64,000 nt of DNA, taken from assembly GCA_963840035.1 (NCBI GenBank), contig CAWIXE010000001.1, forward strand, positions 332,503 to 396,502. The letters run 5' to 3'. The notes beneath the pieces are model-generated. The model had not been told where the DNA came from. It did not search any database and worked only from the letters and a program-made list of their open reading frames with translations. The first letter of the stretch is position 1; each line of letters begins with the position of its first letter. A program made the translations under genes and the position numbers. Positions 10,296 through 55,628 of the stretch are shown in pieces. This DNA is from a candidate division FCPU426 bacterium. Its GTDB lineage: Bacteria > Oederibacteriota > PGYV01 > Palsa-1178.

Positions 10296-10299
10296 TTAC

Positions 10300-11525: not shown

Positions 11526-11529
11526 TGGG

Positions 11530-17935: not shown

Positions 17936-17937
17936 CG

Positions 17938-19575: not shown

Positions 19576-19644
19576 GCATACATCTATTTTAACAAAACAA
19601 AGAATTAATTCAATTTTTATTATGTCTTTTATGAATGGATCTGC

Positions 19645-20781: not shown

Positions 20782-20940
20782 GAAAACACCCTCCAATTAT
20801 TTATCGTTTTTATATTATAACATATCAGGAAATGATATGGGCATATGTTTTCTGATATATATGCATAATGATGTAATATTTAAATTAACTGGGGTTTAAT
20901 GATTGATAAGAATTTTCGGAAAGTTTGTATATTTGCTTTT

Positions 20941-22083
20941 TTATTGTGCTAGTTTTGCATATATTTTAAGAGTTTCTTCCGCAGTCTCTTTCCATGAAAA
21001 TTTTTCCGCCTGCTTAAACCCCTTTTCCTTCAGGGACTCCCTTTTTGACTCGCTCTTTTCAAGCTCATCGAGCCCGCGGACAATGTCCTCCACGGAAAAA
21101 GGGTCTATGAGCATGGCCGCGTCCCCGGCCACCTCTGAGAGCGACGTATTGTTTGAAGTCACCACAGGCAGCCCGCAAAGAAAAGCCTCCAGCACCTGCA
21201 GCCCGAAACCTTCCCACATGGAAGGGAACAGGAACATGAACGCCGCGTTATAAAGCAGGATCATGTCCTCCTCGGGCGCGTACTCTGTTATAATCACGTG
21301 CTTTTCCAGGTTCAGTTCCTTAATTATATCCGCGATATTCGTGGTGTCCATCTCTTTTTTTCCGATGGAGGTGATCACCAGCTGGTATTTGAATTCCGTC
21401 ATGTTATTGAACATGTTAAAGGCTTCAAGCGAGCGCGCAGTGTTTTTCCTCATGTCGGAGGCCGCGCTTAAAAGTACAAACGGCTTTGTGATGCCGTATT
21501 TCTGTTTTATGCCGGCAATCTTTTTTTCGTCGTTTATGACGCGGTATTTTTTATCCGCGGCTTCCTTTATGACTGTCACTTTTTCTTCTTTGACGTGCAT
21601 GTGCTTCATAATGTCCGATTTTGAATATTCGGAAACAGTTATTACATGGTCCGCTATCCTGCCGGAATGGGGTATTGAAAATTTATTATACGCGTCCACC
21701 ATGCGCTGCTTGAACGTCGGTTTTGATATTGCTTTTGCCAGCGGCCGCACGAACATGGTGTCGTGTATGGTCACTACCTTTTTTCCCTGATAGTAAGGGC
21801 TTAAATACGGAAGCGTATTGTCGGTCCCGTGCAGTATGTCGAGCTTATCCTTCGCCGCTTCCATAGGAAGCAGAAACTGCTCATATAAAAGGGCGTTCGC
21901 GGTATTTAACCTCTTGAACCTGCAGTTTTTCGCCGCTATATATTCATTAAGGGTGGAACGCTTGTCCAGGTAAACGATGTATTCGTTTTTTTTGTCTATC
22001 TCAAGGAGGTTCTTAACCAGGTTTTCAATATACCTGCCCACACCCCTCTTGAAAATTATCCTGGCGTCAATTCCTATTCTCAC
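20941..22083 (-). CDS. Glycosyltransferase family 4 (GT-B fold)
   Basis: E-x7-E motif EGFGLQVLEAFLCGLPVVTSNNTSLSEVAGDAAMLIDP. Confidence 0.75.
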   Translation of the reverse strand: MRIGIDARIIFKRGVGRYIENLVKNLLEIDKKNEYIVYLDKRSTLNEYIAAKNCRFKRLNTANALLYEQFLLPMEAAKDKLDILHGTDNTLPYLSPYYQGKKVVTIHDTMFVRPLAKAISKPTFKQRMVDAYNKFSIPHSGRIADHVITVSEYSKSDIMKHMHVKEEKVTVIKEAADKKYRVINDEKKIAGIKQKYGITKPFVLLSAASDMRKNTARSLEAFNMFNNMTEFKYQLVITSIGKKEMDTTNIADIIKELNLEKHVIITEYAPEEDMILLYNAAFMFLFPSMWEGFGLQVLEAFLCGLPVVTSNNTSLSEVAGDAAMLIDPFSVEDIVRGLDELEKSESKRESLKEKGFKQAEKFSWKETAEETLKIYAKLAQ

Positions 22084-22150
22084 AATTCACCGCTTTTTTG
22101 TTCATTGTTCCTCGTTCATTGTTCTGTTGCCACCCTCCACTCACCACCCA

Positions 22151-22927
22151 CTACTCACAACTTTCTATACCCTTCTTTCTCCCCACCACTATAAACCCTC
22201 CGCCTTTTTCCGGCAGAAGTTTTGTCATTATCGCGTCTATGGCGTCAAGCTTCCAAAATATGAATTTTTCCGGCAATTTGCCTATGATATTCTCAAGGCC
22301 CTTGGGCATCCTTAAATAATTTGTTGATATGGTCTTTTCCACTTCAAACCCGGCCTTATACATGAGATCTTTTACCTCTTTCGGGTTGAAGTTAAAAAGG
22401 TGGTCCTTGTGCTCTATCTCCAGTTTTTTCGCGTGCTTTTTAAACATGAGCTTATAAAACGCGTCCTTGTTGGTGAGGGTTACTATTATGATGCCGCCTT
22501 CTTTTAAGGCGTTGTAGGCGTTTTTTATGACCTTGCCGGGCTCATAGGTGTGGTCAAGGACTTCCTTTATCAGGCAGGCGTCGTACGCGCAGGATTCCTC
22601 CAGCGTCTCGCCTGTGCCGTGCCTTAACTCAAAATCCTCTTCCTTTATCTCGTCATGAAGCATGTTCTCGGATGGCTCTATGCCGGTATATTTTTTTACA
22701 ATATCGCGCGAGAGCTTGTAAAAATCCCCCCTGCCCGCCCCTATATCCAGCAGGCTTAAGTACTCATTGCGCGCCACGACTTCCTTGGCCAGTATGGAGA
22801 TGACGGTCTTATTGAGCCTTTTCCACTTTTTTTTCATCATCTCTGTGGCAGAGCTCTCCAGCAGCTCGGTATCATCCCACTTAAGCTGCGTCTCTTCCCA
22901 GGCTTTTACCTTATCGTCGTTTTCCAT
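22151..22927 (-). CDS. Class I SAM-dependent methyltransferase
   Basis: Motif I LLDIGAGRGDF. I place the probable start at MENDDKV (22927). The longer ORF-track start (23068) reads through the REP element. Confidence 0.7.
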   Translation of the reverse strand: MENDDKVKAWEETQLKWDDTELLESSATEMMKKKWKRLNKTVISILAKEVVARNEYLSLLDIGAGRGDFYKLSRDIVKKYTGIEPSENMLHDEIKEEDFELRHGTGETLEESCAYDACLIKEVLDHTYEPGKVIKNAYNALKEGGIIIVTLTNKDAFYKLMFKKHAKKLEIEHKDHLFNFNPKEVKDLMYKAGFEVEKTISTNYLRMPKGLENIIGKLPEKFIFWKLDAIDAIMTKLLPEKGGGFIVVGRKKGIESCE

Positions 22928-23010
22928 AAATCTCCCGGCTGTTGTGTTGATATGACTTATTTTAACAAAAACAGAGGTATATTTAAAGGTGTAATAAGGG
23001 ATTTTATTGT

Positions 23011-23179
23011 TCTCGTAGAGAGGGGGCTTGCCCCCTCTCAAACGCAGGCCTGCCTTGAGATCCAGCAAGCCGGCTCTCTACAGTTATATAAAACCACAAC
23101 AAAGTTCTCGTAGAGAGGGGGCTTGCCCCCTCTCCAGCGCAGGTCCTGCCCTGAGAGGCAGCAAGCCGCCTCTCTACAG
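23011..23179. repeat. Two REP-pair (BIME-like) units downstream of the RAYT gene
   Basis: The unit CTCGTAGAGAGGGGGCTTGCCCCCTCTC...CCGGCTCTCTACAG occurs twice (23011-23093 and 23106-23179). It has a GTAG head and hairpin stems. Confidence 0.65.
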
Positions 23180-23698
23180 GTTCTCTAACTTCTTCCGTTC
23201 CTCAAACAATTCATACCATTCCTTCTCTTCCATGCCGGGTTCATAAACCATTGGGTTGTTTAATATATACTCACTTGCAAAAAAATACTCAAATTCTCCC
23301 CGTATTATCCTGTCATAAAACCCTTCCTGCCAAAATTTCCTGCCGGGTTTCTGTTGTAATTTATTAATTGCTATCGTTGATTTTGATTTAAAAACGCATA
23401 TCATATCGTGGAGTGTTTTGCCTGTTTTCCTGCCAATCCGGATAATACCGTGCATATGATCCGGCATAAACATAAAATCGCCAAGAGCAATGTTTTCAAA
23501 CTTACTTTTTAGTTCGATCCAGCATGCTGTTGCCGCCTTTCCGGCGTCTGACAAAAACATTTTTCGGTCTTTTATAGAACCAAAAAAGTTATGCCGTTTA
23601 TCAAGACAGATGGTGACAGAATAATCCCCTTCCGATGAATAGTCATATTCTTTTAAATGATTTGATTCGATACGGTATTTGTTGTTGTAAAGCGACAT
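23174..23698 (-). CDS. REP-associated tyrosine transposase (RAYT, IS200/IS605 TnpA-like HUH enzyme)
   Basis: HUH motif FMPDHMHGIIRI. Catalytic Tyr region FWQEGFYDRIIRGE. 174 aa. Flanked on both sides by inverted REP pairs. Confidence 0.75.
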   Translation of the reverse strand: MSLYNNKYRIESNHLKEYDYSSEGDYSVTICLDKRHNFFGSIKDRKMFLSDAGKAATACWIELKSKFENIALGDFMFMPDHMHGIIRIGRKTGKTLHDMICVFKSKSTIAINKLQQKPGRKFWQEGFYDRIIRGEFEYFFASEYILNNPMVYEPGMEEKEWYELFEERKKLENL

Positions 23699-23744
23699 AT
23701 AAACCCCTCTATTTTACGATTTATATCCCCAAAATACGTTTTAC

Positions 23745-23894
23745 TTGCCCCCTCTCAAACGCAGTCCAGCCCTGAGAGCCAGCAAGCCGGCTCTCTACAG
23801 TTTTATAAATACAAAACAACGCTCTCGTAGAGAGGGGGCTTGCCCCCTCTCAAACGCAGGCCCTGCCCTGAGAGCCAGCAAGCCGGCTCTCTAC
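23745..23894. repeat. REP-pair (BIME-like) units upstream of the RAYT gene
   Basis: A partial unit plus a full unit of the same 75-85 bp repeat as 23011-23179. Confidence 0.65.
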
Positions 23895-23906
23895 AAATTA
23901 TATATA

Positions 23907-24974
23907 TTATTTAACTTCCGCCTTATACTTCACCAGCCGCTGTTTTTTCTTCCCTTCCAGCATCTCCAGCGCGAGCCTTCCTATGAACTCAGCTGGTATT
24001 TCCAGGCATTCCTTGTAAATGTCCTTCCTGTTGCATATGGCAAGCCCGCACGGGCTGCATTTGACGTGCCTGTCTACTATTACGGCCTTGTCTCCCATGG
24101 CTCCCCACTCCTGGTACCTTGCGGAACCGCTGAATATGGTGAGCGACTTTACGCCGAAAGCCGCCGCGATATGGACGGCCGCGGAATCATTACCTATGAC
24201 GAGAGAGGCGTGTTTTATAATGGCTTTCATTTCCTTTAAGTTGAGCATACCTGCCAGGTTTACCACGTGCCTGCCGCGTATCTTTTCTATGCCCCTGTCT
24301 TTTTTCCCGCCGACTACGACGGTCTTTATGCCGCGCGACATGAATTCAGCCAGGCTGTTGTACTTTTCCATGTCCCAGTCTTTGGACGTGTGCCCAGAGA
24401 CAGGGTGCATGACTATGTATTTCGTGACTTTTCCTTTTTCAAGAAGGGCTTTTATGTTGTCTTCCGATACCTTATCTGTTTTAAGCGCTGTTTTTGCTGG
24501 AAGCTTTACGCCTGTTATTTCTTTTAGCAGGAGCATGTTTTTTTCCGCGGCGTGGGATGAGATCGGCGGGTGGCTTACAATATGGTTGATGCCAAACCCC
24601 ATTTTGCCGGTATCGTATCCGTATTTGTCCTTTGCCTTTGCCATGGAGAGTATAAACGAAGTGAGCCTGTCCTGCCAGCGCATGCCAATTATCATGTCAT
24701 ACTTTCCGGCGTTTAAAAGGGATATGAGTTTGAATGCGGAAAACCATCTTACGAAAAACGGCTTTGGCTCGTACTTAAGCCATTGCGCGTCAAATGTCTT
24801 AACTTCATCAAAACACCCGAGCCCGTCTAAAACCTGCGAGCCCGCGGGGCTTAAGAACGCGGTGATGTGGGCGTCCTTAAAATGTTTCCTCAGTCCCAAA
24901 AAAAATGGAGACGCAAGTACTGCGTCTCCGATACCGTCTGTTTTTATGACCGCGATGCGTAGCCTGTTTTCCAT
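23907..24974 (-). CDS. ADP-heptose:LPS heptosyltransferase (GT9 family)
   Basis: N-terminus MENRLRIAVIKTDGIGDAVLASPFF. C-terminus GNDSAAVHIAAAFGVKSLTIFSGSARYQEWG. Confidence 0.7.
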   Translation of the reverse strand: MENRLRIAVIKTDGIGDAVLASPFFLGLRKHFKDAHITAFLSPAGSQVLDGLGCFDEVKTFDAQWLKYEPKPFFVRWFSAFKLISLLNAGKYDMIIGMRWQDRLTSFILSMAKAKDKYGYDTGKMGFGINHIVSHPPISSHAAEKNMLLLKEITGVKLPAKTALKTDKVSEDNIKALLEKGKVTKYIVMHPVSGHTSKDWDMEKYNSLAEFMSRGIKTVVVGGKKDRGIEKIRGRHVVNLAGMLNLKEMKAIIKHASLVIGNDSAAVHIAAAFGVKSLTIFSGSARYQEWGAMGDKAVIVDRHVKCSPCGLAICNRKDIYKECLEIPAEFIGRLALEMLEGKKKQRLVKYKAEVK

Positions 24975-34130: not shown

Positions 34131-34961
34131 CTAAAAATTATACGACAAACTAACGCCGTTCATCGCGGGCGTAAATGATACGTTCTTGGGCATGTCAAGG
34201 TTGTTTATGACTTTTCCCGTCACAATACCTATCACCGCGCCCAGAAGCACGTCCGATGGCCAGTGCGCGCCCCTGTAGATACGCGCGATCCCTGTCAGCG
34301 CTGCGGCCGGATATGTGATCCATCCTATGTCATACCTGTCGCCAATTATCGTCGCGGCCACAAATGCCGTTGTGGTATGCCCCGAAGGATACGCCGCGTC
34401 GTCAAACGTAAACCAGGTGAATGCAAGTGAGTCGTCAGTCTGCGACGGCCTTTCCCTTCCGCAGATTATTTTTATTACGTTTGTAATGGCCCCTGCCACC
34501 GCAAGCCCTTCAACCACGCTCACGGCGGTTTTCTTTTCTTTCTCCCCGCCGAGAGAAAATAAGAGGGCGTCCCCGGCAAGTACAGTCAGACCGTCGCCGC
34601 CGCGGTTGAAAATATCAAAAAAAGTGTCTTTAAATTTATTTGGCCCTGACCTTACTGTTTTTGATATCCACAAATCGTTTTTAATCAGAAGGTAAGTGGC
34701 CGCCCCGAACCCGGCCGTAATTAATCCTGTTTTTAAAGGGTCCTCAATCACCGCGCCGCCGATAGCCTTAAAATCATCAAAAAAAACGCGGTTCCATATG
34801 GTATCCTCCGCGAAAACAGAAGAATAAAAAAACAATAAAACCAGTATTGTTATTATTTCATACTTCAGGATAGAAGCTCCGGACTTTTTCATTTGTTCTT
34901 TATGCCCCACTTTTGACTTTTGAGTTTTGACATTTGACTTTACCTGCAGCCCGCCACTCAC
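34131..34961 (-). CDS. PAP2-family membrane phosphatase
   Basis: Motifs KIICGRERPS, YPSGHTTTAF and RIYRGAHWPSDVLLGAVIG. Confidence 0.7.
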   Translation of the reverse strand: MSGGLQVKSNVKTQKSKVGHKEQMKKSGASILKYEIITILVLLFFYSSVFAEDTIWNRVFFDDFKAIGGAVIEDPLKTGLITAGFGAATYLLIKNDLWISKTVRSGPNKFKDTFFDIFNRGGDGLTVLAGDALLFSLGGEKEKKTAVSVVEGLAVAGAITNVIKIICGRERPSQTDDSLAFTWFTFDDAAYPSGHTTTAFVAATIIGDRYDIGWITYPAAALTGIARIYRGAHWPSDVLLGAVIGIVTGKVINNLDMPKNVSFTPAMNGVSLSYNF

Positions 34962-39676: not shown

Positions 39677-39919
39677 TAACACCCGCATAAATACAAAACC
39701 TTGTGTCATTTTAAGTAATTTTACCTGCCCCGTCAATGCATATCTCCTCAAGTAAACGCTGTTATTAAGGAATTATTAGACTCAAACCCGACTTTTACCG
39801 TAATGCGGTCGTTATTACCGGTATTTTTATATTATAACCCAATAAAATAGGCAGTTTTTTTATTGACATCCGCTATTAAATGGGTTATAACTAAGCATAA
39901 CCAAAAAAACATAACGTAA

Positions 39920-40564
39920 TTGATTTCTTTTTTAAGGAGACTTTTTTTGCCAAAAGCAGGAAAAAGGGAAATTCGCTCCATTTTAAAGGATCTGAGCCAG
40001 AAAATCCTGGCTCCTGTTGTTGTTCTTTTAAAAAAAACAGGAATAACCCCTGACATCCTTACCTGGACAGGGTTCCTGCTGAACTTACCCGCGGTTTACT
40101 TCATTATTAAGGGTAATTTCGCAATAGCCGCTCTCATAGTTCTTTTTGCCGCCATTTTTGACATGTTAGACGGCGCTTTAGCCCGCATGGGAAACATGAA
40201 GACCAAATTCGGCGGGTTTCTTGATTCTACGGTGGACAGGTTTATAGAGGGAATTTTGTACTTCGGACTTCTTGTATACTATATTGAAACCGGAAATAAA
40301 TACGGCATCATGTTAAGTTACGCGGTGTTGTTCTTTTCCTTTCTTGTCAGCTATTTGCGGGCAAGGGCCGGAGGGCTTAAGATTGACTGTGAAGTCGGGA
40401 TCTTTACGCGGCCTGAAAGGCTTGTTGTTCTTATATTAGGGCTTCTTTTTAACCTGGTTTTTTATGTGCTGGTTATACTGGTTGTGGCGTCGTTTATCAC
40501 CGCGGTACAGCGCATGATGCTTGTTTATGCTGAGGCCAAAAAGTTGGATAAAAAAAGGAAATAA
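39920..40564 (+). CDS. CDP-alcohol phosphatidyltransferase, candidate phosphatidylinositol-phosphate synthase
   Basis: Motif DMLDGALARMGNMKTKFGGFLDSTVDR (D-x2-DG-x2-AR-x8-G-x3-D-x3-D). Six TM helices. It lies immediately upstream of the myo-inositol-1-phosphate synthase gene. Confidence 0.7.
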   Translation: MISFLRRLFLPKAGKREIRSILKDLSQKILAPVVVLLKKTGITPDILTWTGFLLNLPAVYFIIKGNFAIAALIVLFAAIFDMLDGALARMGNMKTKFGGFLDSTVDRFIEGILYFGLLVYYIETGNKYGIMLSYAVLFFSFLVSYLRARAGGLKIDCEVGIFTRPERLVVLILGLLFNLVFYVLVILVVASFITAVQRMMLVYAEAKKLDKKRK

Positions 40565-40579
40565 TTTCAAGGAGGGTTT

Positions 40580-41665
40580 TTGAAGATGGAAAAGAAGAAA
40601 ATCAGACTCGCGATTGTCGGACTCGGAAACTGCGCCTGGTCTCTTATGCAGGGGCTGGAGTACTATAAAAACGTAAAAGATGACGCGCAGATACAGGGAT
40701 TAATGCACGCCAACCTCGGCGGTTACAGGATTAAGGACATAGAACTTGTGGCCGCGTTTGATGTTGATTCCAATAAGGTCGGTAAGGACGCCAAAGAAGC
40801 CCTTGAATCACCTCCGAACAATACCATTGAATTCGCGAAATTAAAAAAGACCGGGGTTAAGGTCATGATGGGAAAGACCCTGGACGGCCTCGGCAAATAT
40901 TACAGGACCGTCGTAAAAGAAGCCACGGCAAAACCCGTTGACATAGCAAAAACATTAAAAAAAGTTAAGGCTGATGTCCTCGTATCATACCTCCCTGTCG
41001 GCTCGGAAAAAGCCGTTAAATTTTACGCTACCGAATGCCTGAAGGCAAAGGTCGCTTTTGTAAACGCCATCCCGGTTTTTGTCGCCTCAAACCCGGAATG
41101 GGCTGAGAAATTCAAAAAAGCCGGCGTGCCTATTATCGGCGACGACATCAAGTCGCAGGTCGGCGCCACCATAGTACACAGGGTATTAACGCAGCTGTTC
41201 GGAGACAGAGGCTGCAAGATTTACAGGACATACCAGATAAACTTCGGCGGCAATATGGACTTCATGAATATGCTGGAGAGGGAAAGGCTTTACTCCAAGA
41301 AAATATCCAAGACTAACGCCGTGCTAAGCCAGATGCAGAACCCGATAAACGCCGCGGAAGACGTCCACGTCGGCCCGAGCGACTACGTGCCGTGGTTAAA
41401 GGACAGGAAATGGTGCTATATAAAGATAGAAGGCTCCAATTTCGGCGAAGTTCCCATCGACATAGAGCTAAAGCTTGAGGTCTGGGATTCCCCCAACAGC
41501 GCCGGAGTTATCATTGACGCTGTAAGATGCGCGAAGATCGCCCTGGACAGGAAGATCGGCGGCATACTTGAAGGCCCTTCGGCGTATTTCATGAAAACGC
41601 CTCCCAAACAGTACAACGACTCAAAAGCAAAGCAAATGGTCGAGGACTTCATTAAGGAAAGATAA
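40580..41665 (+). CDS. ino1: myo-Inositol-1-phosphate synthase (bacterial/archaeal type)
   Basis: [24 protein letters not shown] (cf. the mycobacterial Ino1 VGVGNCASSLVQG). A 361 aa NAD-binding Rossmann protein. Confidence 0.75.
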
Positions 41666-42532
41666 ATGTACATACTGCTCAAACTCACAGAGCTGATAAT
41701 ACAAAATATCCCGCGTAAAGCGGGATATTTTATTTTTACCGTTTTTTCAAAAATGTCATTCATCTTTAACAAAAAACGCAGGGAGACTCTCCGGGAAAAC
41801 TTGAGCGCAGCCATCGGCGCGGATAAAGTAGATGACGCGCTCTTAAAAAAGGTATTTGTCAATTACGGCAAGTATTACTGCGACCTTTTCATGAAAACCA
41901 CCAGCCTGCAGGCCTATATCCCGGCGGAGTGCGGCAATTATTTTCGTGACACCATTGTTCCCGTTGTAAATTCATACCTTACCAAAGGGCGCGGCGTTAT
42001 TTTTGCGTCCATGCATTACGGCAGCTGGGACATAGCCGGCAGTTTTGCCGCCGGGTACTTTAAGGGAAAGCTCAATGTTGTTGTTGAAAAGCTCTCAGGC
42101 GGTATGTTTAAATGGTTCATGGAGAAACGCGGCGTCCTGGGCATGAAGCCGATCGAATCCACCGACATCAAATCCATGATCAGGGTTTTAAAAGCCGGCG
42201 AAATACTCATCTTAATGGCCGACCGCGACCTGGACAAACGCGGCTATAAAATGGATTATTTCGGGAAGAAAGCGTGCATCCCCAGCGGCCCGGCGAAGAT
42301 ATCGTTAATGGCTAAAACCCCGATATTCATAGGCGTGGCACCGAGGGATAAGGACGATAACTTCTGGCCAATGCTTAACATACCGCCGATTAACGCGGAA
42401 TGCGTCGAAAGGTCGGAAGAAGCGGCGGAAAACATAACAAAACAGCTTGTCGCCGCGATGGAGAAGTTCGTAAGAAACGACCCGTCACAGTGGTGTATGC
42501 TGCAGGAGGTCTTTGTAAAGGAAGATAAGTAA
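41666..42532 (+). CDS. LpxL/PatA-family lysophospholipid acyltransferase
   Basis: HX4D motif SMHYGSWD. 288 aa. Confidence 0.65.
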   Translation: MYILLKLTELIIQNIPRKAGYFIFTVFSKMSFIFNKKRRETLRENLSAAIGADKVDDALLKKVFVNYGKYYCDLFMKTTSLQAYIPAECGNYFRDTIVPVVNSYLTKGRGVIFASMHYGSWDIAGSFAAGYFKGKLNVVVEKLSGGMFKWFMEKRGVLGMKPIESTDIKSMIRVLKAGEILILMADRDLDKRGYKMDYFGKKACIPSGPAKISLMAKTPIFIGVAPRDKDDNFWPMLNIPPINAECVERSEEAAENITKQLVAAMEKFVRNDPSQWCMLQEVFVKEDK

Positions 42533-42607
42533 TAGAAAAACGGAGCTGGATTATCACTTCTCCTGTCTCCAATCTCTTGTCTCTTAACCTCTAAGGAGCA
42601 ACAACTT

Positions 42608-43747
42608 TTGACAAAAAGTAAAAGTTTTAAAAAAATAGCCATAGTAACGCCGTACTACTACCCGCTGTTTGGCGGCGTACAGGAGTATGTCTATCACTTA
42701 AAGAAAGAATATAAAAAACTCGGCTACTATGTCCGCGTTATAACCGGCACTTTTAAGAGGGAGCACAGCAAGGACGAGAACGAGGTCCTTCGCATGGGGC
42801 TCGGCGTGCCGATAAAGTTTAACGGCTCGGTAGGCAGGATCATCATGATACGCCGCGGTGAAAAGGTCAGGCAGACCCTTGATTATTATAACTTTGACAT
42901 CATCCACCTCCAGGAACCCTTTGTTCCCTTCCTTTCGCACGACGTTATTAAGTATTCAAAAGCCGTCAATGTCGCCACCTTCCACGCCAATTTTGAGACA
43001 AACTTCTTTTACAGCTTTGGCAGGGTTTTCCTCCTGCCTTTGTGGGACAGGCTTGCCGGCAGGATAGCTGTATCGCCTTCGGCTAAATCAAGCATTACCA
43101 AATATTTCAGCGGCAAAGATGTTGAAATAATACCCAACGGCGTTGACACTTCCCGCTTCACGCCTAAAAACAAAAAGATAAAGAGATTTGATGACGGTAT
43201 GACAAATATTCTTTTTACAGGCAGGGTGGAAAAACGCAAAGGCCTGATATATCTGCTCCAGGCTTTCGGCGGGTTAAAGAAAAAACACCCGAAGATACGC
43301 CTTATAGTCGTAGGCAGGGGCCCTCTTTTAAAGCATCACAAAAAATATGTAGAAGACAATAAAATCAAAGACGTCCACTTCGAGGGTTTTGTTCCCATAG
43401 ACGACCTTCCGCGTTATTATTCCACGGCCGACATCTACTGCTCCCCGGCTTTATTCGGGGAATCATTCGGCATAGTCCTGCTTGAGGCCATGGCCTCGGC
43501 GGTTCCTGTTGTGGCTTTCAACATAAGCGGGTATAATGACGTGGTCTCGAACTTAAGCGACGGCCTGCTCGCCGAGCCGCGAAACATACACGACCTGGCA
43601 GAAAAGCTGGAACTGCTTATAACCGATAAGAAACTGCGGCGCACTCTCGGGTCAAACGGCCTGAAAAAAGCGCGCAAATTCACATGGAAAGAGATAGCAG
43701 CGCGCAACATTGCGTATTATAAAAAACTCTGGGAGAACAAAAAATAA
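42608..43747 (+). CDS. GT4 glycosyltransferase, PimA-like candidate phosphatidylinositol mannosyltransferase
   Basis: E-x7-E motif FGESFGIVLLEAMASAVPVVAFNISGYNDVV. GT-B fold. Confidence 0.7.
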   Translation: MTKSKSFKKIAIVTPYYYPLFGGVQEYVYHLKKEYKKLGYYVRVITGTFKREHSKDENEVLRMGLGVPIKFNGSVGRIIMIRRGEKVRQTLDYYNFDIIHLQEPFVPFLSHDVIKYSKAVNVATFHANFETNFFYSFGRVFLLPLWDRLAGRIAVSPSAKSSITKYFSGKDVEIIPNGVDTSRFTPKNKKIKRFDDGMTNILFTGRVEKRKGLIYLLQAFGGLKKKHPKIRLIVVGRGPLLKHHKKYVEDNKIKDVHFEGFVPIDDLPRYYSTADIYCSPALFGESFGIVLLEAMASAVPVVAFNISGYNDVVSNLSDGLLAEPRNIHDLAEKLELLITDKKLRRTLGSNGLKKARKFTWKEIAARNIAYYKKLWENKK

Positions 43748-44616
43748 TGTATTACATCCTCCGCTTTGCCACCTGGTTCATCTGCCTTTTCCCCATTAAG
43801 CCGCTTTACGCATTCGCCGGCTGGGCCACTAAAATAGTTTTTAAGTTCTGGAAGGAAAAACGGGAAAACATCCATAGAAATTACTCCGTGATTCTGTCAA
43901 AAAAGTACGGAAGGCCGGCCACTGGAGAAGAGATTAATGCCGTAATGGAGGATAACTACATCAACTACGGCAAGTTCAATGTAGAGTTCCTCTATATGAA
44001 CAAGCTGATAAAAATGTCAAACCTTCCGCCCGCAAGGAATATTGAGCGCATTGACGAAGGCTTAAAACCCGGCAAAGGCCTCATGATATGTACCCTTCAC
44101 TTTTCCAACTGGGACGTGGCAGGCGCCATCATATCCGGCCATTATAAAGATAAATGCGAAGTCTGGGCCATAGCCGACGACTTAGGCGGCGGTTATTCAA
44201 AGTTCATCCAGGATTCCAGAAACCGCTACGGCATCAAGATAGTTCTGGGTAACAAGAACATAAAAGACGCCTACGGCTGCTTAAACAGGGGCGGCATATT
44301 GAACGTGCTCTTAGACAGGCCATTGCCCCGCACAGACAAAAGCGGCGTTGAAGTGGAATTCTTCGGCAAAAAGATATGGGTAGCCTCCACAGCCGCCCGC
44401 ATAGCCCTTAAAACAGGCTGCAGGATGTTAGTAGGCTACGCAGTAAGGGAAGGCATGTCCTTCTACGGCCAGCCCGGCCCGCTGCTGGAATACACCCTCA
44501 CAGGCGACAAAGACAAGGACGTCCAGATAATCACCCAGTCAGCCATGAGAGACGCGGAAAAACTCATCATGGACCACCCGGAACAGTGGTATATGTTCAG
44601 GAATATGTGGACTTAA
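43747..44616 (+). CDS. Second LpxL/PatA-family acyltransferase
   Basis: HX4D motif CTLHFSNWD. 289 aa. Its start overlaps the stop of the GT4 gene. Confidence 0.65.
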   Translation: MYYILRFATWFICLFPIKPLYAFAGWATKIVFKFWKEKRENIHRNYSVILSKKYGRPATGEEINAVMEDNYINYGKFNVEFLYMNKLIKMSNLPPARNIERIDEGLKPGKGLMICTLHFSNWDVAGAIISGHYKDKCEVWAIADDLGGGYSKFIQDSRNRYGIKIVLGNKNIKDAYGCLNRGGILNVLLDRPLPRTDKSGVEVEFFGKKIWVASTAARIALKTGCRMLVGYAVREGMSFYGQPGPLLEYTLTGDKDKDVQIITQSAMRDAEKLIMDHPEQWYMFRNMWT

Positions 44617-44753
44617 AACAAATTTTCAATTCTAAATTTTCAATTTTCAATTAAATTCTTGCGTTTTAATAATCGCACTGTATAATGTCTTTTGTTATTA
44701 TTTGTTATTAATTGAAAATTTAAAATATAAAATTGAAAATCGGAAGGTTGACA

Positions 44754-45482
44754 ATGCCAAAAAAAGTATTTAAAAACAACAAACTACCAAAAGGTTTTTC
44801 AAAGGCCGACTACCACATCCACACCTCCATAGGCGACGCGGTAATGACGCCTCAGGAGCTGGTTGACTTCTGCGAGCATAAGACCGACTTAAAAGTAATC
44901 GCCGTCACAGACCACGACCAGATAAAAGGGGCCATAGAGGCTCAGCAGTACGCCAAAAAGAAAAAGTACAAGCTGGAAGTCATAGTGGGTGAGGAAGTCT
45001 CCACACTTAAAGGCCACCTCATAGGCCTCTTCATGAAACAGCGCATCAGAAGGTACACGACGCTCCCCAAAACCATAAAGATGATACACGAACAGGGCGG
45101 CATAGTCATAGTCCCCCACCCATTGTCATGGTTGACCACCAGCGTGGGTGAGATGGCCTTCAGGCAGATAATAAAGTCAAAGGATCCCAACATATATTTC
45201 GACGCTGTAGAATTAATAAATCCGGCGATAGCCGGGAAGATAACGGACGGAAAGGCTCAGAAACTTAACGATAAAGTTTGGAAACTCCCCGTCACAGGCG
45301 GCTCAGACGCCCACTCCATAGACGGCATAGGCTCAGCATACACAATCTTCAAAGGCAAAACCGCCGAAGACTTCCGCAAAGCGATCTTAAACGGCACAAC
45401 CACATACGGCGGTTGTTACTGGAACTTCAGGGAGCATTGGGATTTGTTTGTGGAAAAATTTAAAAAGTTTAAAGTTTTTTAA
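44754..45482 (+). CDS. PHP-domain metal-dependent phosphoesterase
   Basis: YHIHTSIGDAVMTPQELVDFCEHKTDLKVIAVTDHD...GGSDAHSIDGIG. The ATG at 44754 has a GGAAGG ribosome-binding site. The ORF-track start at 44733 is an alternative TTG. Confidence 0.65.
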   Translation: MPKKVFKNNKLPKGFSKADYHIHTSIGDAVMTPQELVDFCEHKTDLKVIAVTDHDQIKGAIEAQQYAKKKKYKLEVIVGEEVSTLKGHLIGLFMKQRIRRYTTLPKTIKMIHEQGGIVIVPHPLSWLTTSVGEMAFRQIIKSKDPNIYFDAVELINPAIAGKITDGKAQKLNDKVWKLPVTGGSDAHSIDGIGSAYTIFKGKTAEDFRKAILNGTTTYGGCYWNFREHWDLFVEKFKKFKVF

Positions 45483-45644
45483 TTTAATATTTCTATTAAA
45501 CCTTTAATATAAAACATTCCTGCGTTTCAAAACATAACATTTCTGTTCTATTTTTTAACATTTTCCGTTCTATTTTTAAACACTTTTATCCACATTTCCC
45601 CATTATAAATCACAAATAGTAAATTTTAAATGGGTTTTTCACTC

Positions 45645-46208: not shown

Positions 46209-46249
46209 AATTGTCTTCCTCCTAAACCCCTAATCCTTACCCTTATGTT

Positions 46250-47333
46250 CCTGCCTTGAGACGCAGACAAGCTGCGTCTCTACAATGGTTGTAAATATTT
46301 CAGCTGTGAAAACCCGTAGAGACGGGACCCGTGCCCGTCTCCGCGCTGCTGCGTTGCTGCCCTGAGACGCAGACAAGCTGCGTCTCTACAGTGTGCGTAA
46401 ATATTTCAGTTCTTAAAACCCGTAGAGACGGGACCCGTGCCCGTCTCCGCGCTGCTGCGTTGCTGCCCTGAGACGCAGACAAGCTGCGTCTCTACAGTGG
46501 TTATAAATATTTCAGCTGTAAAAACCGTAGAGACGGGCCTTGTGCCCGTCTCCACGCTGCTGCGTTGTTGCACTGAGACGCAGACAAGCTGCGTCTCTAC
46601 AGTGGGTGTAAATATTTACAGCTGTTAAACCCGCAGAGACGGGACCCGTGCCCGTCTCCGCGCTGCTGCGTTGCTGCCCTGAGACGCAGACAAGCTGCGT
46701 CTCTACAATGGGTGTAAATATTTACAGCTGTTAAACCCGTAGAGACGGGACTCGTGCCCGTCTCCGCGCTGCTGCGTTGCTGCCCTGAGACGCAGACAAG
46801 CTGCGTCTCTACAATGGTTGTAAATATTTCAGCTGTTAAAACCGTAGAGACGGGACCCGTGCCCGTCTCCGCGCTGCTGCGTTGCTGCCCTGAGACGCAG
46901 ACAAGCTGCGTCTCTACAATGGTTGTAAATATTTCAGCTGTGAAAACCCGTAGAGACGGGACCCGTGCCCGTCTCCGCGCTGCTGCGTTGCTGCCCTGAG
47001 ACGCAGACAAGCTGCGTCTCTACAATGGTTGTAAATATTTCAGCTGTGAAAACCCGTAGAGACGGGACCCGTGCCCGTCTCCGCGCTGCTGCGTTGCTGC
47101 CCTGAGACGCAGACAAGCTGCGTCTCTACAATGGTTGTAAATATTTCAGCTGTTAAAACCGTAGAGACGGGCCTTGTGCCCGTCTCCGCGCTGCTGCGTT
47201 GCTGCCCTGAGACGCAGACAAGCTGCGTCTCTACAATGGTTGTAAATATTTCAGCTGTTAAAACCGTAGAGACGGGCCTCGTGCCCGTCTAAACCCCGGA
47301 TCGATCCAGACCCCCACGAGGGGCGTCTCTACG
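46250..47333. repeat. Tandem array of about 10.5 BIME-like units (period about 105-108 bp), each holding two inverted GTAG-headed REP hairpins
   Basis: Unit GTAGAGACGGGACCCGTGCCCGTCTCCGCGCTGCTGCGTTGCTGCCCTGAGACGCAGACAAGCTGCGTCTCTACAATGGTTGTAAATATTTCAGCTGTGAAAACCC. The spacers are not unique, so it is not CRISPR. Confidence 0.75.
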
Positions 47334-52641: not shown

Positions 52642-52878
52642 ATTATTCTCCTGTTGTTATTGTATGGTTCTGTAGTGGCAATTCATGAATTGCCGATCCT
52701 TCCCTGGGCGATTCGTGAATCGCCCCTACAAAAACAATGCTCATTTTTAAATAAAGCCGGGTATCCGATAACTCCTTCCGGGCATCCGGTACCGTTGCTT
52801 CCTTCCGGACCTGGCGGGGTTGCGGAGCCGGCAAGCGCATCAGACCCGGCCTTATTTTGTTTGTTTTGTTTTTATATT

Positions 52879-53037: not shown

Positions 53038-54924
53038 TTATTTGTTTTTTGCCTTTGTTATATAGCCGAAGGCCATAAGTATCGCGGCGAAATATACCAG
53101 TGCCATGATATCCATTACCGGCGGGTTTTTGGCAAACGACGGGAATATCCACAGCAGTATTTTATCCGCCGAGCCTATTGCCGCGTATATCTTTTCTTTT
53201 GAAACCGCGTAGCGCAGCGGCGGAGCCGCCATCATGGCAAATGAAGAGACCAGCGTTACCCCGAGCATAATCATAAATGTTTTTGTCTTCTGGAATCCCA
53301 TGGCGTCCATAAAGTACGCGTAAAAGACAGCCCACATCATGGCCATGGGCACCATCTGCCTGGCCGGTATCATGGAGCCTGTCCAGTCGCTCCAGAATAA
53401 AAAGAGGCTGTAATACGGTATGGTAAAGGCAAATACCAGCAGCAGCCTGAAATTTTTCCTCTGCCACGCCAGCATGACGCCCCACAGGGATATGATGAAA
53501 AGCGGATTGTAGATAAATAGCCCGTAATTCCTGTCAAACATCATGGCAAAAAAAGACTTTATCGCGTTCCATAAATCAAAGACAAAAAAGTAAGAGGTGT
53601 TCTCGTGTATGGATTTTATCCCTGACAGGGCAAAAACCCCGAATACCGAGTAATAATAAAATACAAAAAGGCCCCCTATAATTCCAAGCGTTGCGTTATT
53701 TGCAATTTCCGACGGGGCTTTGTATGCTTTCTTCCTCCAGGTCACGGCATAATACGCGGCGTAAAATATAAGCGACATTATGGCCAGCTTTGAGTGGAGC
53801 CAAGTCATGCATCCGATGCAGGCAAAATAAATTATTGAGGCGCCTTTGACCCTTATACCCGCCAGGTCAATCTCATAAAAACCCTCATTTTTTTCATATA
53901 TGGAATAAATATACGCCGCGCAGTACAGGATAAGTATTGCGGCGGGTATTTCCGTTAACGCGAGCGAAGAGCACATAAGCACGGGCGACGTTATGGAAAA
54001 TATCATGGAGGTAAATACCGCCGCATTATTTTTAATGTTAATTTTTATAAGAAAAATAAATAACAATGCCCCGAGGAACGCGGTTAAGGCGTTCATCAGC
54101 AGCCCCACTCCCAAACGTCCGCCGGCTTTTAGAAACGGCGCCATGAGGAAGGATACTCCGGCGTTATGCGTGGAATAAAGCCCTGTGCCGCCCCTGCCTT
54201 TTGTATTATGGAGGTTCTCATATTCCAGCTCCACCGGGTAAAAACTTTTATATGTCTTTCCCGTCACATACTGGTTTTCAAGGTTTACATCCAGGTCGTC
54301 TCCCAGACTTTTGGCTATTGTCAGGTAATGCGGCTCATCACCTGTAGGGGGGTAAATCACCGTAACCCATGATGTGGTCACTGCCGTAAAAAGGAATATT
54401 CCGAGGAATATCATTTTTGCGGTTTTTATCGCGCCGAATTTTTCCGACGCGTCATGCGTCATCTTTATAAAACGTATCATTATTGGAAAACAAAGCAGCA
54501 TTATGATAACGGATATCGCTGTCAAAATAAAATAACCCGAAGCCGTGAAATGTGTAAATCCCCCGGCCGGCTTATAAACCCAGCCGAGCACTTTCAGGTC
54601 AAGTGTAGATAATCTGTCGTTTAGTTTAAAGAAAACCGGCAGTAAAAGAAACGCAAGCGACGGCAGGCCGAATATAATGGAGTTTGTTTTCATCTCGTCG
54701 TGCGGGTCGGTCCCGAAAACCTTCATGAACGCGGCTGAAATAAAAAGCCATAGTATTGAAAAAAGTATTGAATAGGAAATTATGGATAAACAAAGGCTGC
54801 CCGGGTTTATGGCTGATACCAGAAAGGCCTTATCCCCGGCCATGGACGCGGCTATGTATGCGTAAATACCTGTTATTCCGCCTGATAAGGCAGGCAGGAC
54901 CGGATACAGCGGGTTGTTTTTCAT
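53038..54924 (-). CDS. GT-C fold membrane glycosyltransferase (PMT/ArnT-like), paralog of the 16223-17935 gene
   Basis: Polytopic. Loop motif YPPTGDEPHYLTIAKSLGDD. The probable start at MKNNPLYP overlaps the stop of the upstream 3D-domain gene by 4 nt. Confidence 0.6.
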   Translation of the reverse strand: MKNNPLYPVLPALSGGITGIYAYIAASMAGDKAFLVSAINPGSLCLSIISYSILFSILWLFISAAFMKVFGTDPHDEMKTNSIIFGLPSLAFLLLPVFFKLNDRLSTLDLKVLGWVYKPAGGFTHFTASGYFILTAISVIIMLLCFPIMIRFIKMTHDASEKFGAIKTAKMIFLGIFLFTAVTTSWVTVIYPPTGDEPHYLTIAKSLGDDLDVNLENQYVTGKTYKSFYPVELEYENLHNTKGRGGTGLYSTHNAGVSFLMAPFLKAGGRLGVGLLMNALTAFLGALLFIFLIKINIKNNAAVFTSMIFSITSPVLMCSSLALTEIPAAILILYCAAYIYSIYEKNEGFYEIDLAGIRVKGASIIYFACIGCMTWLHSKLAIMSLIFYAAYYAVTWRKKAYKAPSEIANNATLGIIGGLFVFYYYSVFGVFALSGIKSIHENTSYFFVFDLWNAIKSFFAMMFDRNYGLFIYNPLFIISLWGVMLAWQRKNFRLLLVFAFTIPYYSLFLFWSDWTGSMIPARQMVPMAMMWAVFYAYFMDAMGFQKTKTFMIMLGVTLVSSFAMMAAPPLRYAVSKEKIYAAIGSADKILLWIFPSFAKNPPVMDIMALVYFAAILMAFGYITKAKNK

Positions 54925-55628
54925 TTTATCTTCTTCTGGTCGTCTGTTTTTTTCCTGTAATGGCTCCACGGCTTTGAGCCAAGAACATACACCCTTACTT
55001 TTTTCCTTCCCCATTTCAGGGCTTCCTTTGTGGTGTTATAGCACAGGTCTATCCTCTTTCCTTTAATATCGCCGCCGGTGTCGCCGGCCCATGCAAAGCC
55101 GTAGCCGTCAACGTATATAAGCGAGCGCAGCGCGATTATCCTGGGGTCCACAGCCGCTATGCCGTAGCGCGTCCTCCAGCCAAGCGCGGTAATGCCCGCC
55201 CATTCCACCCCGTTTGACTCGGGGGACGGGTCATACGCCGTGGCTTCCATGTCATATGTATAATGCGCGTATGTTTCCTTAGGGACGGTGACGGGGTTTG
55301 TTTTTTTTGAATGACCCAGGACAAGCATGGCTTCAACGGGTTTTTTCAGGACGCCTGTTTCAAATATTATATTTTGCTTTACCGGTATTCCGGCAAATGA
55401 AAAATTTTCAGTCACCGCGTTTTTATACCCGGGGGAGCCTTCCTTAACCCATACTTTCCAGCCTTCCTGAAGGAATCCGCTGTGTTTTTTCTTTATTTTA
55501 TACTGGATCGACTGCCTGCCTATAGAGTATGAGGATGAGGAAAACATGGCAAACAAGGACGTACCAAGCCACAAAACCAGCATGACAGCGCAGGCAGCTG
55601 TTATAAATGACCTTTCTTTTTTTTCCAT
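54921..55628 (-). CDS. 3D-domain (MltA/YuiC-like) cell-wall-binding protein
   Basis: GIAAVDPRIIALRSLIYVDGYGFAWAGDTGGDIKGKRIDLCYNTTKEALKWGRKKVRVYVL. It has an N-terminal signal or TM segment. Confidence 0.6.
   Translation of the reverse strand: MEKKERSFITAACAVMLVLWLGTSLFAMFSSSSYSIGRQSIQYKIKKKHSGFLQEGWKVWVKEGSPGYKNAVTENFSFAGIPVKQNIIFETGVLKKPVEAMLVLGHSKKTNPVTVPKETYAHYTYDMEATAYDPSPESNGVEWAGITALGWRTRYGIAAVDPRIIALRSLIYVDGYGFAWAGDTGGDIKGKRIDLCYNTTKEALKWGRKKVRVYVLGSKPWSHYRKKTDDQKKIK

Follow-up and report, generated by a model that had tools for sequence, protein, structure and literature searches.

A conserved six-gene cluster for a predicted acylated glycosyl-phosphatidylinositol lipid in a candidate division FCPU426 bacterium

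Here, we show that a 64,000-nucleotide stretch of DNA from a candidate division FCPU426 bacterium (hereafter, the window) carries six co-oriented, tightly packed genes on the forward strand at 39920-45482 (Table 1), which we read, with moderate confidence, as one operon encoding a linear pathway to an acylated glycosyl-phosphatidylinositol membrane lipid. An ORF check recovered all six genes where the preliminary description had placed them, and Pfam HMM searches assigned each one to the family claimed for it, with every match above the gathering score. Neighbouring genes are separated by 15, 0, 75, -1 and 116 bases: the start codon of the first acyltransferase (AT1) directly abuts the stop codon of the inositol-phosphate synthase, and the start of the second (AT2) overlaps the stop of the GT4 gene by one base. 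The same six-gene order in three related contigs, together with the clustering of this gene set in dozens of species that belong to other phyla, indicates that this adjacency did not arise by chance. Three things were established directly: the family assignments, the retention of residues for catalysis and substrate binding, and the conservation of the cluster across phyla.

Table 1 Features of the window considered in this study (positions counted from the first nucleotide of the window).
Feature	Position	Strand	Description
Putative sigma-70-type promoter	39864-39893	+	TTGACA-17 nt-TATAAC; suggested by eye
PIP synthase (PIPS)	39920-40564	+	214 aa; class I CDP-alcohol phosphatidyltransferase
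myo-Inositol-1-phosphate (inositol-3-phosphate) synthase (MIPS)	40580-41665	+	361 aa; short bacterial/archaeal type
AT1	41666-42532	+	288 aa; PatA-like acyl-CoA-dependent acyltransferase, LpxL/PatA superfamily
GT4	42608-43747	+	379 aa; PimA-like GT4 (GT-B) glycosyltransferase predicted to glycosylate phosphatidylinositol
AT2	43747-44616	+	289 aa; second, divergent LpxL/PatA-superfamily acyltransferase
PHP	44733-45482	+	249 aa; PHP-family metal-dependent phosphoesterase, candidate PIP 3-phosphatase
Wzy_C protein	679-2445		O-antigen-ligase type
GT-C-like gene	16223-17935		Weak 'LA_3751/LA_3752 putative glycosyltransferase' match (NCBIfam, 55 bits; cut-off 200)
GT-C gene	17938-19575		Pfam PMT_2, 39.9 bits; only one of the three reaching a Pfam GT-C family
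GT9 heptosyltransferase	23907-24974		
GT-C-like gene	53038-55014		Weak 'LA_3751/LA_3752 putative glycosyltransferase' match (NCBIfam, 36 bits; cut-off 200)

The putative promoter sits in a 223-bp divergent gap 5' of the PIP synthase gene; it is absent from the automatic scan because its second hexamer ends in C. The true start of PIP synthase is probably the TTG at 39947, which lies 7 nt after AAGGAG; relatives are 199-202 aa long. The database copy of the PHP protein begins at ATG 44754, giving 242 aa.

In the proposed pathway, the inositol-phosphate synthase would convert glucose-6-phosphate to inositol phosphate, which PIP synthase would join to CDP-diacylglycerol to yield phosphatidylinositol phosphate (PIP). 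The PHP phosphoesterase, assigned to this step by gene linkage only, would then strip the terminal phosphate to leave phosphatidylinositol (PI), and, on the cytoplasmic side of the membrane, the PimA-like GT4 would attach one hexose to the inositol ring. AT1 may subsequently acylate the glycolipid, by analogy at the sugar, and AT2 may attach another acyl group at a different position, so that the product would resemble a mono- or di-acylated PIM1. The substrate of the PHP protein, the identity of the sugar, the acylation positions and the final lipid structure are all predicted.

The CDP-alcohol enzyme (Pfam CDP-OH_P_transf, 63 bits) is of the PIP synthase type, in line with the proposed PI synthesis, and groups with neither PgsA nor PssA. 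Among NCBIfam models it scores 149 bits against archaetidylinositol-phosphate synthase and 145 against PIP synthase, but only 29 against PgsA and 26 against PssA, and it reaches 132 bits against the model of BT_1523. [quoted passage not shown] A hydropathy scan found four hydrophobic segments. The inositol-phosphate synthase matches Pfam Inos-1-P_synth at 121 bits and TIGR03450 over its full length at 536 bits, under the equivalog cut-off of 638. Scores against the NCBIfam equivalogs all fall under the curated cut-offs (PIPS, 145 vs 170; PatA model, 140 vs 209; MIPS, 536 vs 638); no protein of the cluster would be automatically named as the mycobacterial enzyme.

The GT4 (Pfam Glycos_transf_1, 145 bits; Glyco_transf_4, 78 bits) is PimA-like, as claimed, and not of the sucrose-synthase type. 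Among solved structures its best match is PimA (2gej, 6e-44, 154 bits, residues 6-372), followed by MshA (69 bits), the sucrose-phosphate-synthase-like Tll1590 (64 bits) and PimB' (56 bits). It shares 31.5% identity with M. smegmatis PimA over 359 aligned positions and keeps the residues equivalent to Y9, G16, Q18, H118, R196, K202, E274 and E282. A reverse search with PimA retrieved this ORF at 150 bits and the other GT4 of the window at 11 bits, and relatives of the GT4 bear the JGI label 'phosphatidylinositol alpha-mannosyltransferase'. Family members differ in the loop holding PimA D253 and K256, and the sequence therefore does not reveal the donor nucleotide; by homology, the sugar added is probably mannose, supplied by GDP-mannose. 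The core of the preliminary proposal, de novo PI synthesis with glycosylation of the PimA type and acylation of the PatA type, withstood each of the refuting checks suggested with it that sequence analysis could address, and the identities of the PIPS, PimA and PatA homologues are upheld by scores and residues, while mannose itself is suggested by homology. A PimB'-like second mannosyltransferase was not found in the window.

The two acyltransferases, both described at first as PatA-like, differ in how clearly they can be placed. AT1 (Pfam Lip_A_acyltrans, 112 bits) favors PatA in both libraries, with 140 bits for the PIM acyltransferase model PRK07920 vs 91 for the best lipid A model in NCBIfam, and, among solved structures, 65 bits for PatA (4e-17) vs 32 for LpxM (4e-7). 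It keeps the catalytic His (HYGSWD), and at the position of PatA E200 it has Asp (ADRD); according to the PatA paper, either Glu or Asp is tolerated there. For AT2 (Lip_A_acyltrans, 91 bits), which has the His motif HFSNWD, the assignment is ambiguous: the PatA and lipid A models are nearly tied (81.3 vs 80.9 bits), as are the solved PatA and LpxM (33 vs 29 bits), and AT2 is therefore not separable by score from lipid A late acyltransferases. AT2 represents a paralogue class of its own, which is kept across phyla. Among 53 loci with two acyltransferases, 35 pair one AT1-like with one AT2-like protein, and 33 of these 35 have them in the same order.

The PHP protein matches Pfam PHP (35 bits) and PHP_C (45 bits), and the family alignment shows the metal ligands HxH, D, DH, E, H, H and DxH to be invariant. 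Its AlphaFold2 model (pLDDT 90) adopts the PHP fold, and the solved structures nearest to it are TM0559, an uncharacterised protein, and the PHP domain of RNase AM (best TM-scores, 0.55-0.68); the solved relatives found for the model include no annotated lipid phosphatase. With a net charge of +12 and a basic C-terminal helix as its most amphipathic stretch, the protein has two features that would fit action at an anionic membrane surface. The proposed pathway requires a PIP phosphatase. This bacterial enzyme has been termed 'as-yet-unidentified' (PMC4634129), and one has been identified only in Bacteroides, the PgpA-like BT_1525 (PMC9246714). PHP-centred sampling of metagenomes gave 24 loci with flanks of 2.5 kb or more on each side; PIPS lies within 6 kb in 17 of these and some pathway gene is adjacent in 20. 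Seven loci have PHP directly followed by PIPS and no other pathway gene. PHP encodes the sole phosphatase of the six-gene cluster, and the PAP2 gene that lies nearby in the window is co-conserved at none of 80 PimA-like loci. Being the only phosphatase that travels with PIP synthase, sometimes beside the synthase alone, the PHP phosphoesterase is the best candidate, from gene linkage only, for the PIP-to-PI phosphatase.

In the preliminary description the cluster was taken for a peculiarity of a single genome of Gram-negative type, a view that its distribution contradicts. The three related contigs share the flanking genes as well as the gene order, and in one of them the GT4 cluster carries the NCBI name HGW-Goldbacteria-1. 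Across the 80 PimA-like loci, drawn from GTDB species representatives and mostly from Chloroflexota and Dormibacterota, PIPS occurs within 8 kb in 72, MIPS in 60, one or more acyltransferases in 45, PHP in 37, and all five gene classes together in 31. The module is widespread in Chloroflexota and Dormibacterota and conserved in Goldbacteria and others as well, and so represents a pathway of broad distribution rather than a transfer specific to this genome.

The reading that competes most closely concerns the PHP protein, which might hydrolyse a soluble phosphoester (GDP or GDP-sugar, pAp or inositol phosphate) or act on the acylated product, PI and the PimA-type glycolipid being made all the same and an unlinked housekeeping phosphatase treating PIP. 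We consider this unlikely, though a serious contender. It is consistent with the nearest solved relatives, which are either uncharacterised or active on nucleotides or RNA, and with weak N-terminal NCBIfam matches to RNase RNM and 3',5'-nucleoside bisphosphate phosphatase; the Nudix gene that comes after pimA in mycobacteria offers a parallel for action on GDP or GDP-sugar. Furthermore, in GT4-centred loci the presence of PHP tracks that of the acyltransferases (both, 35; PHP only, 2; acyltransferase only, 10; neither, 33), hence a role tied to acylated products, or phylogenetic inertia, is possible. Dehalococcoidia clusters (MIPS-GT4-PIPS) manage without PHP, and in two sampled loci no other phosphatase adjoins them, indicating that PHP is not universally required. 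However, in some loci PHP and PIPS are paired while neither a GT4, an acyltransferase nor an inositol-phosphate synthase occurs within 6 kb, which links PHP to the PIP synthase itself rather than to the glycosyltransferase or the acyltransferases; in addition, the similarity to nucleotide enzymes is confined to the first ~70 residues, which hold the metal ligands. The closest known PHP-family phosphoesterases, namely TrpH/RNase AM, the 3',5'-nucleoside bisphosphate phosphatase Cv1693, the histidinol-phosphate phosphatase HisK and the uncharacterised TM0559, have in common with the window protein the PHP fold, here predicted with high confidence, and the full His/Asp/Glu ligand set; its sequence resembles the characterised ones only over that N-terminal region, and linkage to PIP synthase genes sets its subfamily apart.

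It is improbable that the GT4 instead makes a glycosyl-diacylglycerol or, like MshA, glycosylates inositol phosphate, in which case the products of the cluster would be PI and, apart from it, a glycolipid or a solute containing inositol. The GT4 does match the alpha-monoglucosyldiacylglycerol synthase model over its full length and MshA at its C-terminus, both far below threshold (90 bits vs a cut-off of 400; 94 vs 462), and its donor-binding loop is not diagnostic. Against these matches stand the full-length lead of PimA over MshA among solved relatives and the PIP synthase gene within 8 kb of the GT4 at 72 of the 80 PimA-like loci, often overlapping or a few bases apart. Moreover, the inositol hydroxyl that MshA glycosylates is the one to which PIPS attaches the phosphatidyl group, and the two reactions would thus compete. 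We regard as very improbable that AT1 and AT2 simply serve as late acyltransferases of lipid A in a diderm host and lie among inositol genes by chance. Both proteins fall into the same Pfam family as LpxL/LpxM and have the same His-containing active-site motif, AT2 scores equally against the lipid A lauroyl acyltransferase model, and the LPS-type genes claimed elsewhere in the window (GT9 heptosyltransferase and Wzy_C protein) were both confirmed. However, AT1 clearly favors PatA, scoring much lower against LpxL/LpxM, and both genes are translationally packed among those for the synthase, GT4 and PHP. The same pair recurs within the inositol cluster, a context of inositol lipid synthesis, in dozens of genomes of Chloroflexota and Dormibacterota, phyla generally held to lack lipopolysaccharide.

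The suggested likeness to the mycobacterial early PIM operon pgsA1-patA-pimA (Rv2612c-Rv2610c), which makes PI, PIM1/2 and AcPIM2, holds for the core: PIP synthase, PatA-family acyltransferase and PimA-family GT4 appear in the same relative order and keep the PIPS motif and arginines, the catalytic and donor-phosphate residues of PimA, and the catalytic His and block-3 acidic residue of PatA. Unlike that operon, the cluster adds an inositol-phosphate synthase, a second acyltransferase and a PHP phosphoesterase, lacks the HIT and Nudix genes flanking the mycobacterial one, and belongs to a host that is not an actinobacterium, with only ~31% identity to PimA. In Bacteroides thetaiotaomicron, BT_1522-BT_1526 likewise clusters inositol-phosphate synthase and PIP synthase with a dedicated PIP phosphatase alongside (PMC9246714), a place that the PHP candidate would take here; that phosphatase is PgpA-like rather than of the PHP family, and Bacteroides continues to inositol phosphoceramide, whereas the window cluster continues to a GT4 and two acyltransferases. 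The proposal that three GT-C genes extend the lipid into a lipomannan-like glycan was not borne out. Just one of the three is recognised as GT-C, none gives a PimE- or Mpt-specific score (mycobacterial MT1671, 45 bits vs a cut-off of 900), and they belong to a distinct group of glycan genes on the opposite strand, >20 kb from the cluster.

If the preferred reading is true, one operon would encode the full route by which glucose-6-phosphate is turned into an acylated sugar-phosphatidylinositol lipid of mycobacterial type. Nothing in the cluster is more informative than the PHP gene, to which the preliminary description gave no role; it offers a testable candidate for a missing step of bacterial phosphatidylinositol synthesis.

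The six co-oriented genes proposed as an inositol lipid cluster were confirmed on the + strand, with coordinates identical to those of the preliminary description (see the table), and Pfam agrees with the family named for each of them, above the gathering score in all cases (in gene order: CDP-OH_P_transf, Inos-1-P_synth, Lip_A_acyltrans, Glycos_transf_1/Glyco_transf_4, Lip_A_acyltrans, and PHP + PHP_C). Hereafter, the products are the phosphatidylinositol phosphate (PIP) synthase (PIPS), the inositol-phosphate synthase (MIPS), the first acyltransferase (AT1), the PimA-like GT4, the second acyltransferase (AT2) and the PHP phosphoesterase. The genes are separated by 15, 0, 75, -1 and 116 bases, and a promoter-like site lies 5' of the first. 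A Shine-Dalgarno sequence suggests that the true start of the PIPS gene is TTG 39947; for the PHP protein, the copy in the database begins at ATG 44754. No intrinsic terminator was detected 3' of the PHP gene in a pattern scan.

Coordinates of the features discussed, in the window unless a related contig is named
Feature	Position	Strand	Remark
Promoter-like site	39864-39893		near consensus (TTGACA, 17 nt, TATAAC); divergent gap 5' of the cluster
Six-gene cluster	39920-45482	+	PIPS, MIPS, AT1, GT4, AT2, PHP
AT1	41666-42532	+
PimA-like GT4	42608-43747	+
AT2	43747-44616	+
PHP phosphoesterase	44733-45482	+
22-bp repeat	45535-45587		2.4 copies
106-bp tandem array	46247-47290		9.9 copies, 94% matches, no indels
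PAP2 gene	34131-34961		5 kb 5' of the cluster
Glycan-assembly group	16223-24974	-	LA_3751-like polytopic protein, PMT_2 GT-C, Kelch-repeat protein, generic GT4, methyltransferase, GT9 heptosyltransferase
Second GT4	20941-22083
Polytopic membrane protein	2442-3926	+	large, ~13-15 hydrophobic segments
Polytopic membrane protein	53038-55014	-	large, ~13-15 hydrophobic segments
ORF of 595 aa	4614-6401	-	no hydrophobic segments
IS-type transposase	9895-11469	-	HTH + rve integrase core domains
Bacterial small SRP RNA	52752-52851	-	Rfam RF00169, 58.6 bits; ordinary housekeeping gene
PHP + PIPS pair, L084	7001-8691		very large NYN-domain protein next
PHP + PIPS pair, L123	5893-7587		very large NYN-domain protein next
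Two PHP genes, L159	124-6345		one metagenome contig, inverted pair

The possibility that the CDP-alcohol enzyme groups with PgsA or PssA was examined with NCBIfam models, and it sides with the PIP synthases (archaetidylinositol-phosphate synthase 149 bits, PIP synthase 145, PgsA 29, PssA 26). Both leading scores fall below their curated cut-offs (180 bits for the archaeal and 170 for the bacterial PIPS model); still five times that of PgsA, the score indicates that the window enzyme is a divergent member of this family and not of another. Its closest solved structure is the M. tuberculosis PIP synthase, MtPIPS (2e-22), and, aligned to MtPIPS, it carries the complete signature D1xxD2G1xxAR...G2xxxD3xxxD4 (FDMLDGALAR...GGFLDSTVDR), as defined previously (PMC4634129). 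Both MtPIPS arginines, R155 and R195, are kept in the alignment to 6h53 (TRPERL opposite ERPERL, AVQRM opposite CVQRL); these residues bind the phosphate of inositol phosphate and are universal in PIP synthases but missing from eukaryotic PI synthases (PMC4634129). Therefore, the window enzyme is expected to need inositol phosphate, supplied by the adjacent MIPS gene, whose product matches TIGR03450 over its full length (536 bits). The product of PIPS should thus be PIP, not phosphatidylinositol (PI).

The PimA-like character of the GT4 was borne out. Its match to M. smegmatis PimA (6e-44, 154 bits, residues 6-372, 31.5% identity over 359 positions) far exceeds those to other solved GT4s (MshA 69 bits, a sucrose-phosphate-synthase-like protein 64, PimB' 56), and the reverse search with PimA returned the cluster GT4 at 150 bits and the other GT4 of the window at 11, a reciprocal best match within the window. 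PimA residues Y9, G16, Q18, H118, R196, K202, E274 and E282 are kept, with K256 changed to Arg and T119 to Ala. Mutagenesis has assigned catalytic and donor-phosphate roles to G16, H118, R196, K202, E274 and E282 (PMC13533801), which are invariant in our 14-sequence alignment of the GT4 family; common to many GT4s, they are necessary but not specific. The positions of PimA D253 and K256, in the region associated with GDP-mannose as donor, are D and R in the window enzyme, but other family members have V, I, N, E or Q in this loop, and the alignment is unreliable there; this loop is not conserved and does not reveal the donor sugar, and we infer mannose as the sugar of the product. The GT4 had no match to the PIGA family (Pfam, E <= 0.01) that would identify it as PIG-A, the GPI-type GlcNAc-PI synthase, and annotation pipelines already name its relatives 'phosphatidylinositol alpha-mannosyltransferase'. 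The second GT4 of the window, tested as a PimB' candidate, is a generic GT4. No PimB'-like enzyme was found in the window; the product is therefore predicted to be an acylated lipid resembling PIM1 (PIM, phosphatidylinositol mannoside), not PIM2 or higher.

Both acyltransferases had been described as PatA-like. This stands for AT1, which favors PatA-type over lipid A models (140 versus 91 bits in NCBIfam, 65 versus 32 among solved structures), whereas AT2 gives a near-tie (81.3 versus 80.9 and 33 versus 29, PatA versus lipid A type). The curated PIM acyltransferase cut-off of 209 bits was missed by both (AT1 140, AT2 81); since all curated equivalog cut-offs were missed, the cluster proteins have diverged from the reference enzymes and are no close orthologues of them. 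The catalytic His is kept in both (HYGSWD in AT1, HFSNWD in AT2), and Asp stands in place of PatA E200 (ADRD and LDRP, respectively); the acidic residue of block 3 is either Glu or Asp among PatA, HtrB and MsbB (PMC4792965). The His and block-3 acidic residue, which form the His126/E200 charge relay of PatA, are also common to LpxL and LpxM. Among 53 loci with two acyltransferases, 35 pair an AT1-like with an AT2-like ORF, and the order is identical in 33 of the 35; this argues for two distinct, conserved functions. We know of no enzyme assigned to the extra acylation of PIMs in mycobacteria, and the conserved AT2 is a lead towards the acyltransferase of higher-acylated PIMs.

We propose that the six genes form a linear pathway with one gene per step. 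Glucose-6-phosphate would be converted to inositol phosphate, which would react with CDP-diacylglycerol to yield PIP; the PHP protein would then release PI from PIP, and the PimA-like GT4 would form hexosyl-PI, in which mannose is the presumed sugar. Two acylations would follow, by AT1 on the sugar, in analogy with PatA, and by AT2 at a second site. Functionally, the cluster would combine the mycobacterial pgsA1-patA-pimA operon with a front end as in the Bacteroides inositol cluster; it differs in its host phylum, its non-homologous phosphatase candidate, its second conserved acyltransferase and its in-cluster inositol synthesis.

To reach PI by this route, bacteria need a phosphatase that acts after PIP synthase; this enzyme was 'as-yet-unidentified' in 2015 (PMC4634129) and has been identified in Bacteroides only, as the PgpA-like BT_1525, being otherwise yet to be found (PMC9246714). 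The sole phosphatase within the six-gene cluster is the PHP protein. Its metal ligands (H21xH23, D28, D53-H54, E81, H88, H122 and D185xH187) are invariant among 14 diverse homologues, and its AlphaFold2 model (pLDDT 90) adopts the PHP fold, with matches to PHP structures down to E 3e-12. The closest solved structures are the uncharacterised TM0559, the PHP domain of RNase AM and other uncharacterised proteins, and the fold search indicated the superfamily but no substrate or function beyond it. No PgpA family match was obtained with Pfam or NCBIfam; if it is a PIP phosphatase, the PHP protein represents a replacement non-homologous to BT_1525. The protein is basic (net charge +12), and a C-terminal helix rich in Lys and Phe is its most amphipathic segment, which fits action at a membrane surface.

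Gene linkage bears on this assignment in both directions. Metagenome contigs were scanned for PHP loci: of the 24 with 2.5 kb or more on each side, 20 have a pathway gene within 6 kb of PHP and 17 have a PIP synthase. Seven loci (L084, L118, L123, L125, L130, L135 and L139) have PHP followed directly by PIP synthase and lack a GT4, an acyltransferase and an inositol-phosphate synthase within 6 kb; in the one inspected, the signature motif and both arginines are present in the PIP synthase. These loci resemble a PI module reduced to two genes. Counting against a PIP-phosphatase role, PHP goes with the acyltransferases among 80 GT4-centred loci (both present in 35, PHP only in 2, acyltransferase only in 10, neither in 33), and no substitute phosphatase was seen beside two PHP-less Dehalococcoidia loci, save a PP2C-type protein phosphatase next to one. 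The PAP2 gene of the window was considered as another source of this activity and rejected, since no such gene was found near the cluster outside Goldbacteria; its top matches are undecaprenyl-diphosphatases. Its neighbours NadD (cytidylyltransferase-like) and ProA (aldehyde dehydrogenase) are unrelated to the pathway. Overall, with gene linkage as its support, we consider the chances that PHP is the PIP phosphatase to be about even. We found no report of a PHP-type PIP phosphatase in the literature searched. A further arrangement was noticed on metagenome contig L159, where two PHP genes each stand beside a weakly PimA-like GT4 (~70 bits), which may be a diverged form of the module.

The cluster recurs well beyond the window. 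Its GT4 and PHP proteins have database copies of 100% identity on a 1.23-Mb contig. Relatives of its GT4 and PHP at 61-88% identity include proteins named Candidatus Goldbacteria or Goldiibacteriota by NCBI, and three related contigs (L081, L082 and L087) hold the six genes in the same order. Named relatives at 65-72% identity, together with the shared synteny, make Candidatus Goldbacteria the probable host group. Flanks were compared in L081 and L082, the two with enough flanking DNA: both share with the window the upstream neighbours signal peptidase, HemN-like, ProA, NadD and PAP2, and L082 also shares the downstream HSP20, DUF1844, metallophosphoesterase, U32 peptidase and RecR genes. The L082 MAG (GCA_021372235.1, JAJFUW010000149.1) is labelled 'Spirochaetia bacterium' yet has the cluster and flanks of the window; either the label is probably wrong or the contig misbinned.

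Using the 14-sequence GT4 alignment as query against one genome per GTDB species, we confirmed at least 597 relatives. Chloroflexota and Dormibacterota account for most of the best 80 of these, and Actinomycetes, WOR-3 and Hydrothermales are the labels of one MAG each. Of these 80 best loci, 72 have a PIP synthase within 8 kb of the GT4, and 60 have an inositol-phosphate synthase; at this range, one or two acyltransferases occur in 45 and PHP in 37, and all five gene classes occur together in 31. Gene order depends on lineage, and Dehalococcoidia have a minimal MIPS-GT4-PIPS set. This recurrence across phyla indicates that the module is old and widespread, not a curiosity of the window genome. 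For Chloroflexi, Dormibacterota and Goldbacteria, we found no discussion of PIMs or pimA in the literature searched; the single detailed Goldbacteria genome paper mentions neither envelope nor inositol.

The suggestion that three GT-C genes elsewhere in the window could extend the lipid into a lipomannan-like glycan is speculation. Only one has a match to a Pfam GT-C family (PMT_2, 39.9 bits); the remaining two weakly match the LA_3751 family of putative glycosyltransferases. The three lie 20 kb or more away from the PI cluster on the other strand, and none is specifically PimE- or Mpt-like. Among the polytopic proteins of the window, no PimE/MptA/MptB-specific similarity was found, and the MT1671 model reached 45 bits against a cut-off of 900. 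The PMT_2 gene belongs to a separate glycan-assembly group, for which the evidence found shows no tie to the inositol operon. Of the two large polytopic membrane proteins at 2442-3926 and 53038-55014, the first has no Pfam or NCBIfam match at all, and the second, one of the two weak matches just mentioned, reaches 36 bits only against the LA_3751/LA_3752 family. Calling the genome Gram-negative-type is plausible given its GT9, Wzy_C and OmpA-domain proteins, although no lipid A core genes were seen in the window.

Other features of the window were also recorded. Directly 3' of the PHP gene, the AT-rich gap before HSP20 contains a 22-bp repeat (TAACATTTTCCGTTCTATTTTT), a possible regulatory site of the heat-shock gene. 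Between the HSP20 and DUF1844-like genes lies a tandem array of a 106-bp unit, copies of which are confined to the array; two strong hairpins form in each unit (MFE -40 kcal/mol, z = -3.9), which has no Rfam match. Lacking unique spacers, this is not a CRISPR array, and the corresponding gap in L082 is ~230 bp only. The region of the IS-type transposase is probably a mobile-element insertion, and GC at 6001-12000 around it is 0.36-0.42 versus ~0.46 elsewhere in the window. The 595-aa ORF matched no Pfam family at E <= 5 beyond noise.

Acylated PIM-type glycolipids have long been regarded as an actinobacterial hallmark; PIMs and their biosynthetic enzymes have been studied almost solely in mycobacteria and related organisms, in which PimA, PatA and PIP synthase serve as drug targets. 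Bacterial inositol lipids have been described as comparatively rare and largely restricted to Actinobacteria and Spirochaetes (PMC9246714). Our most far-reaching reading, a tentative one with somewhat less than an even chance of being right, is that in Chloroflexota, Dormibacterota, Goldbacteria and allied lineages the bacterial two-step PI pathway relies on this PHP subfamily as its missing PIP 3-phosphatase, a non-homologous stand-in for the PgpA-like enzyme of Bacteroides, and that AT2 is a dedicated second acyltransferase for extra acylation; acylated PIM-type glycolipids would then be old and widespread, also under outer-membrane-type envelopes. The main value of the finding is that PHP becomes a concrete, directly testable PIP phosphatase candidate, and the compact, self-contained operons lend themselves to reconstitution of the pathway in E. 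coli. With the six-gene module in several poorly known phyla, the expected range of glycosylated inositol lipids grows, and should the host prove to be diderm, its envelope of LPS type would also contain this lipid, raising the question of where it is located and what it anchors.
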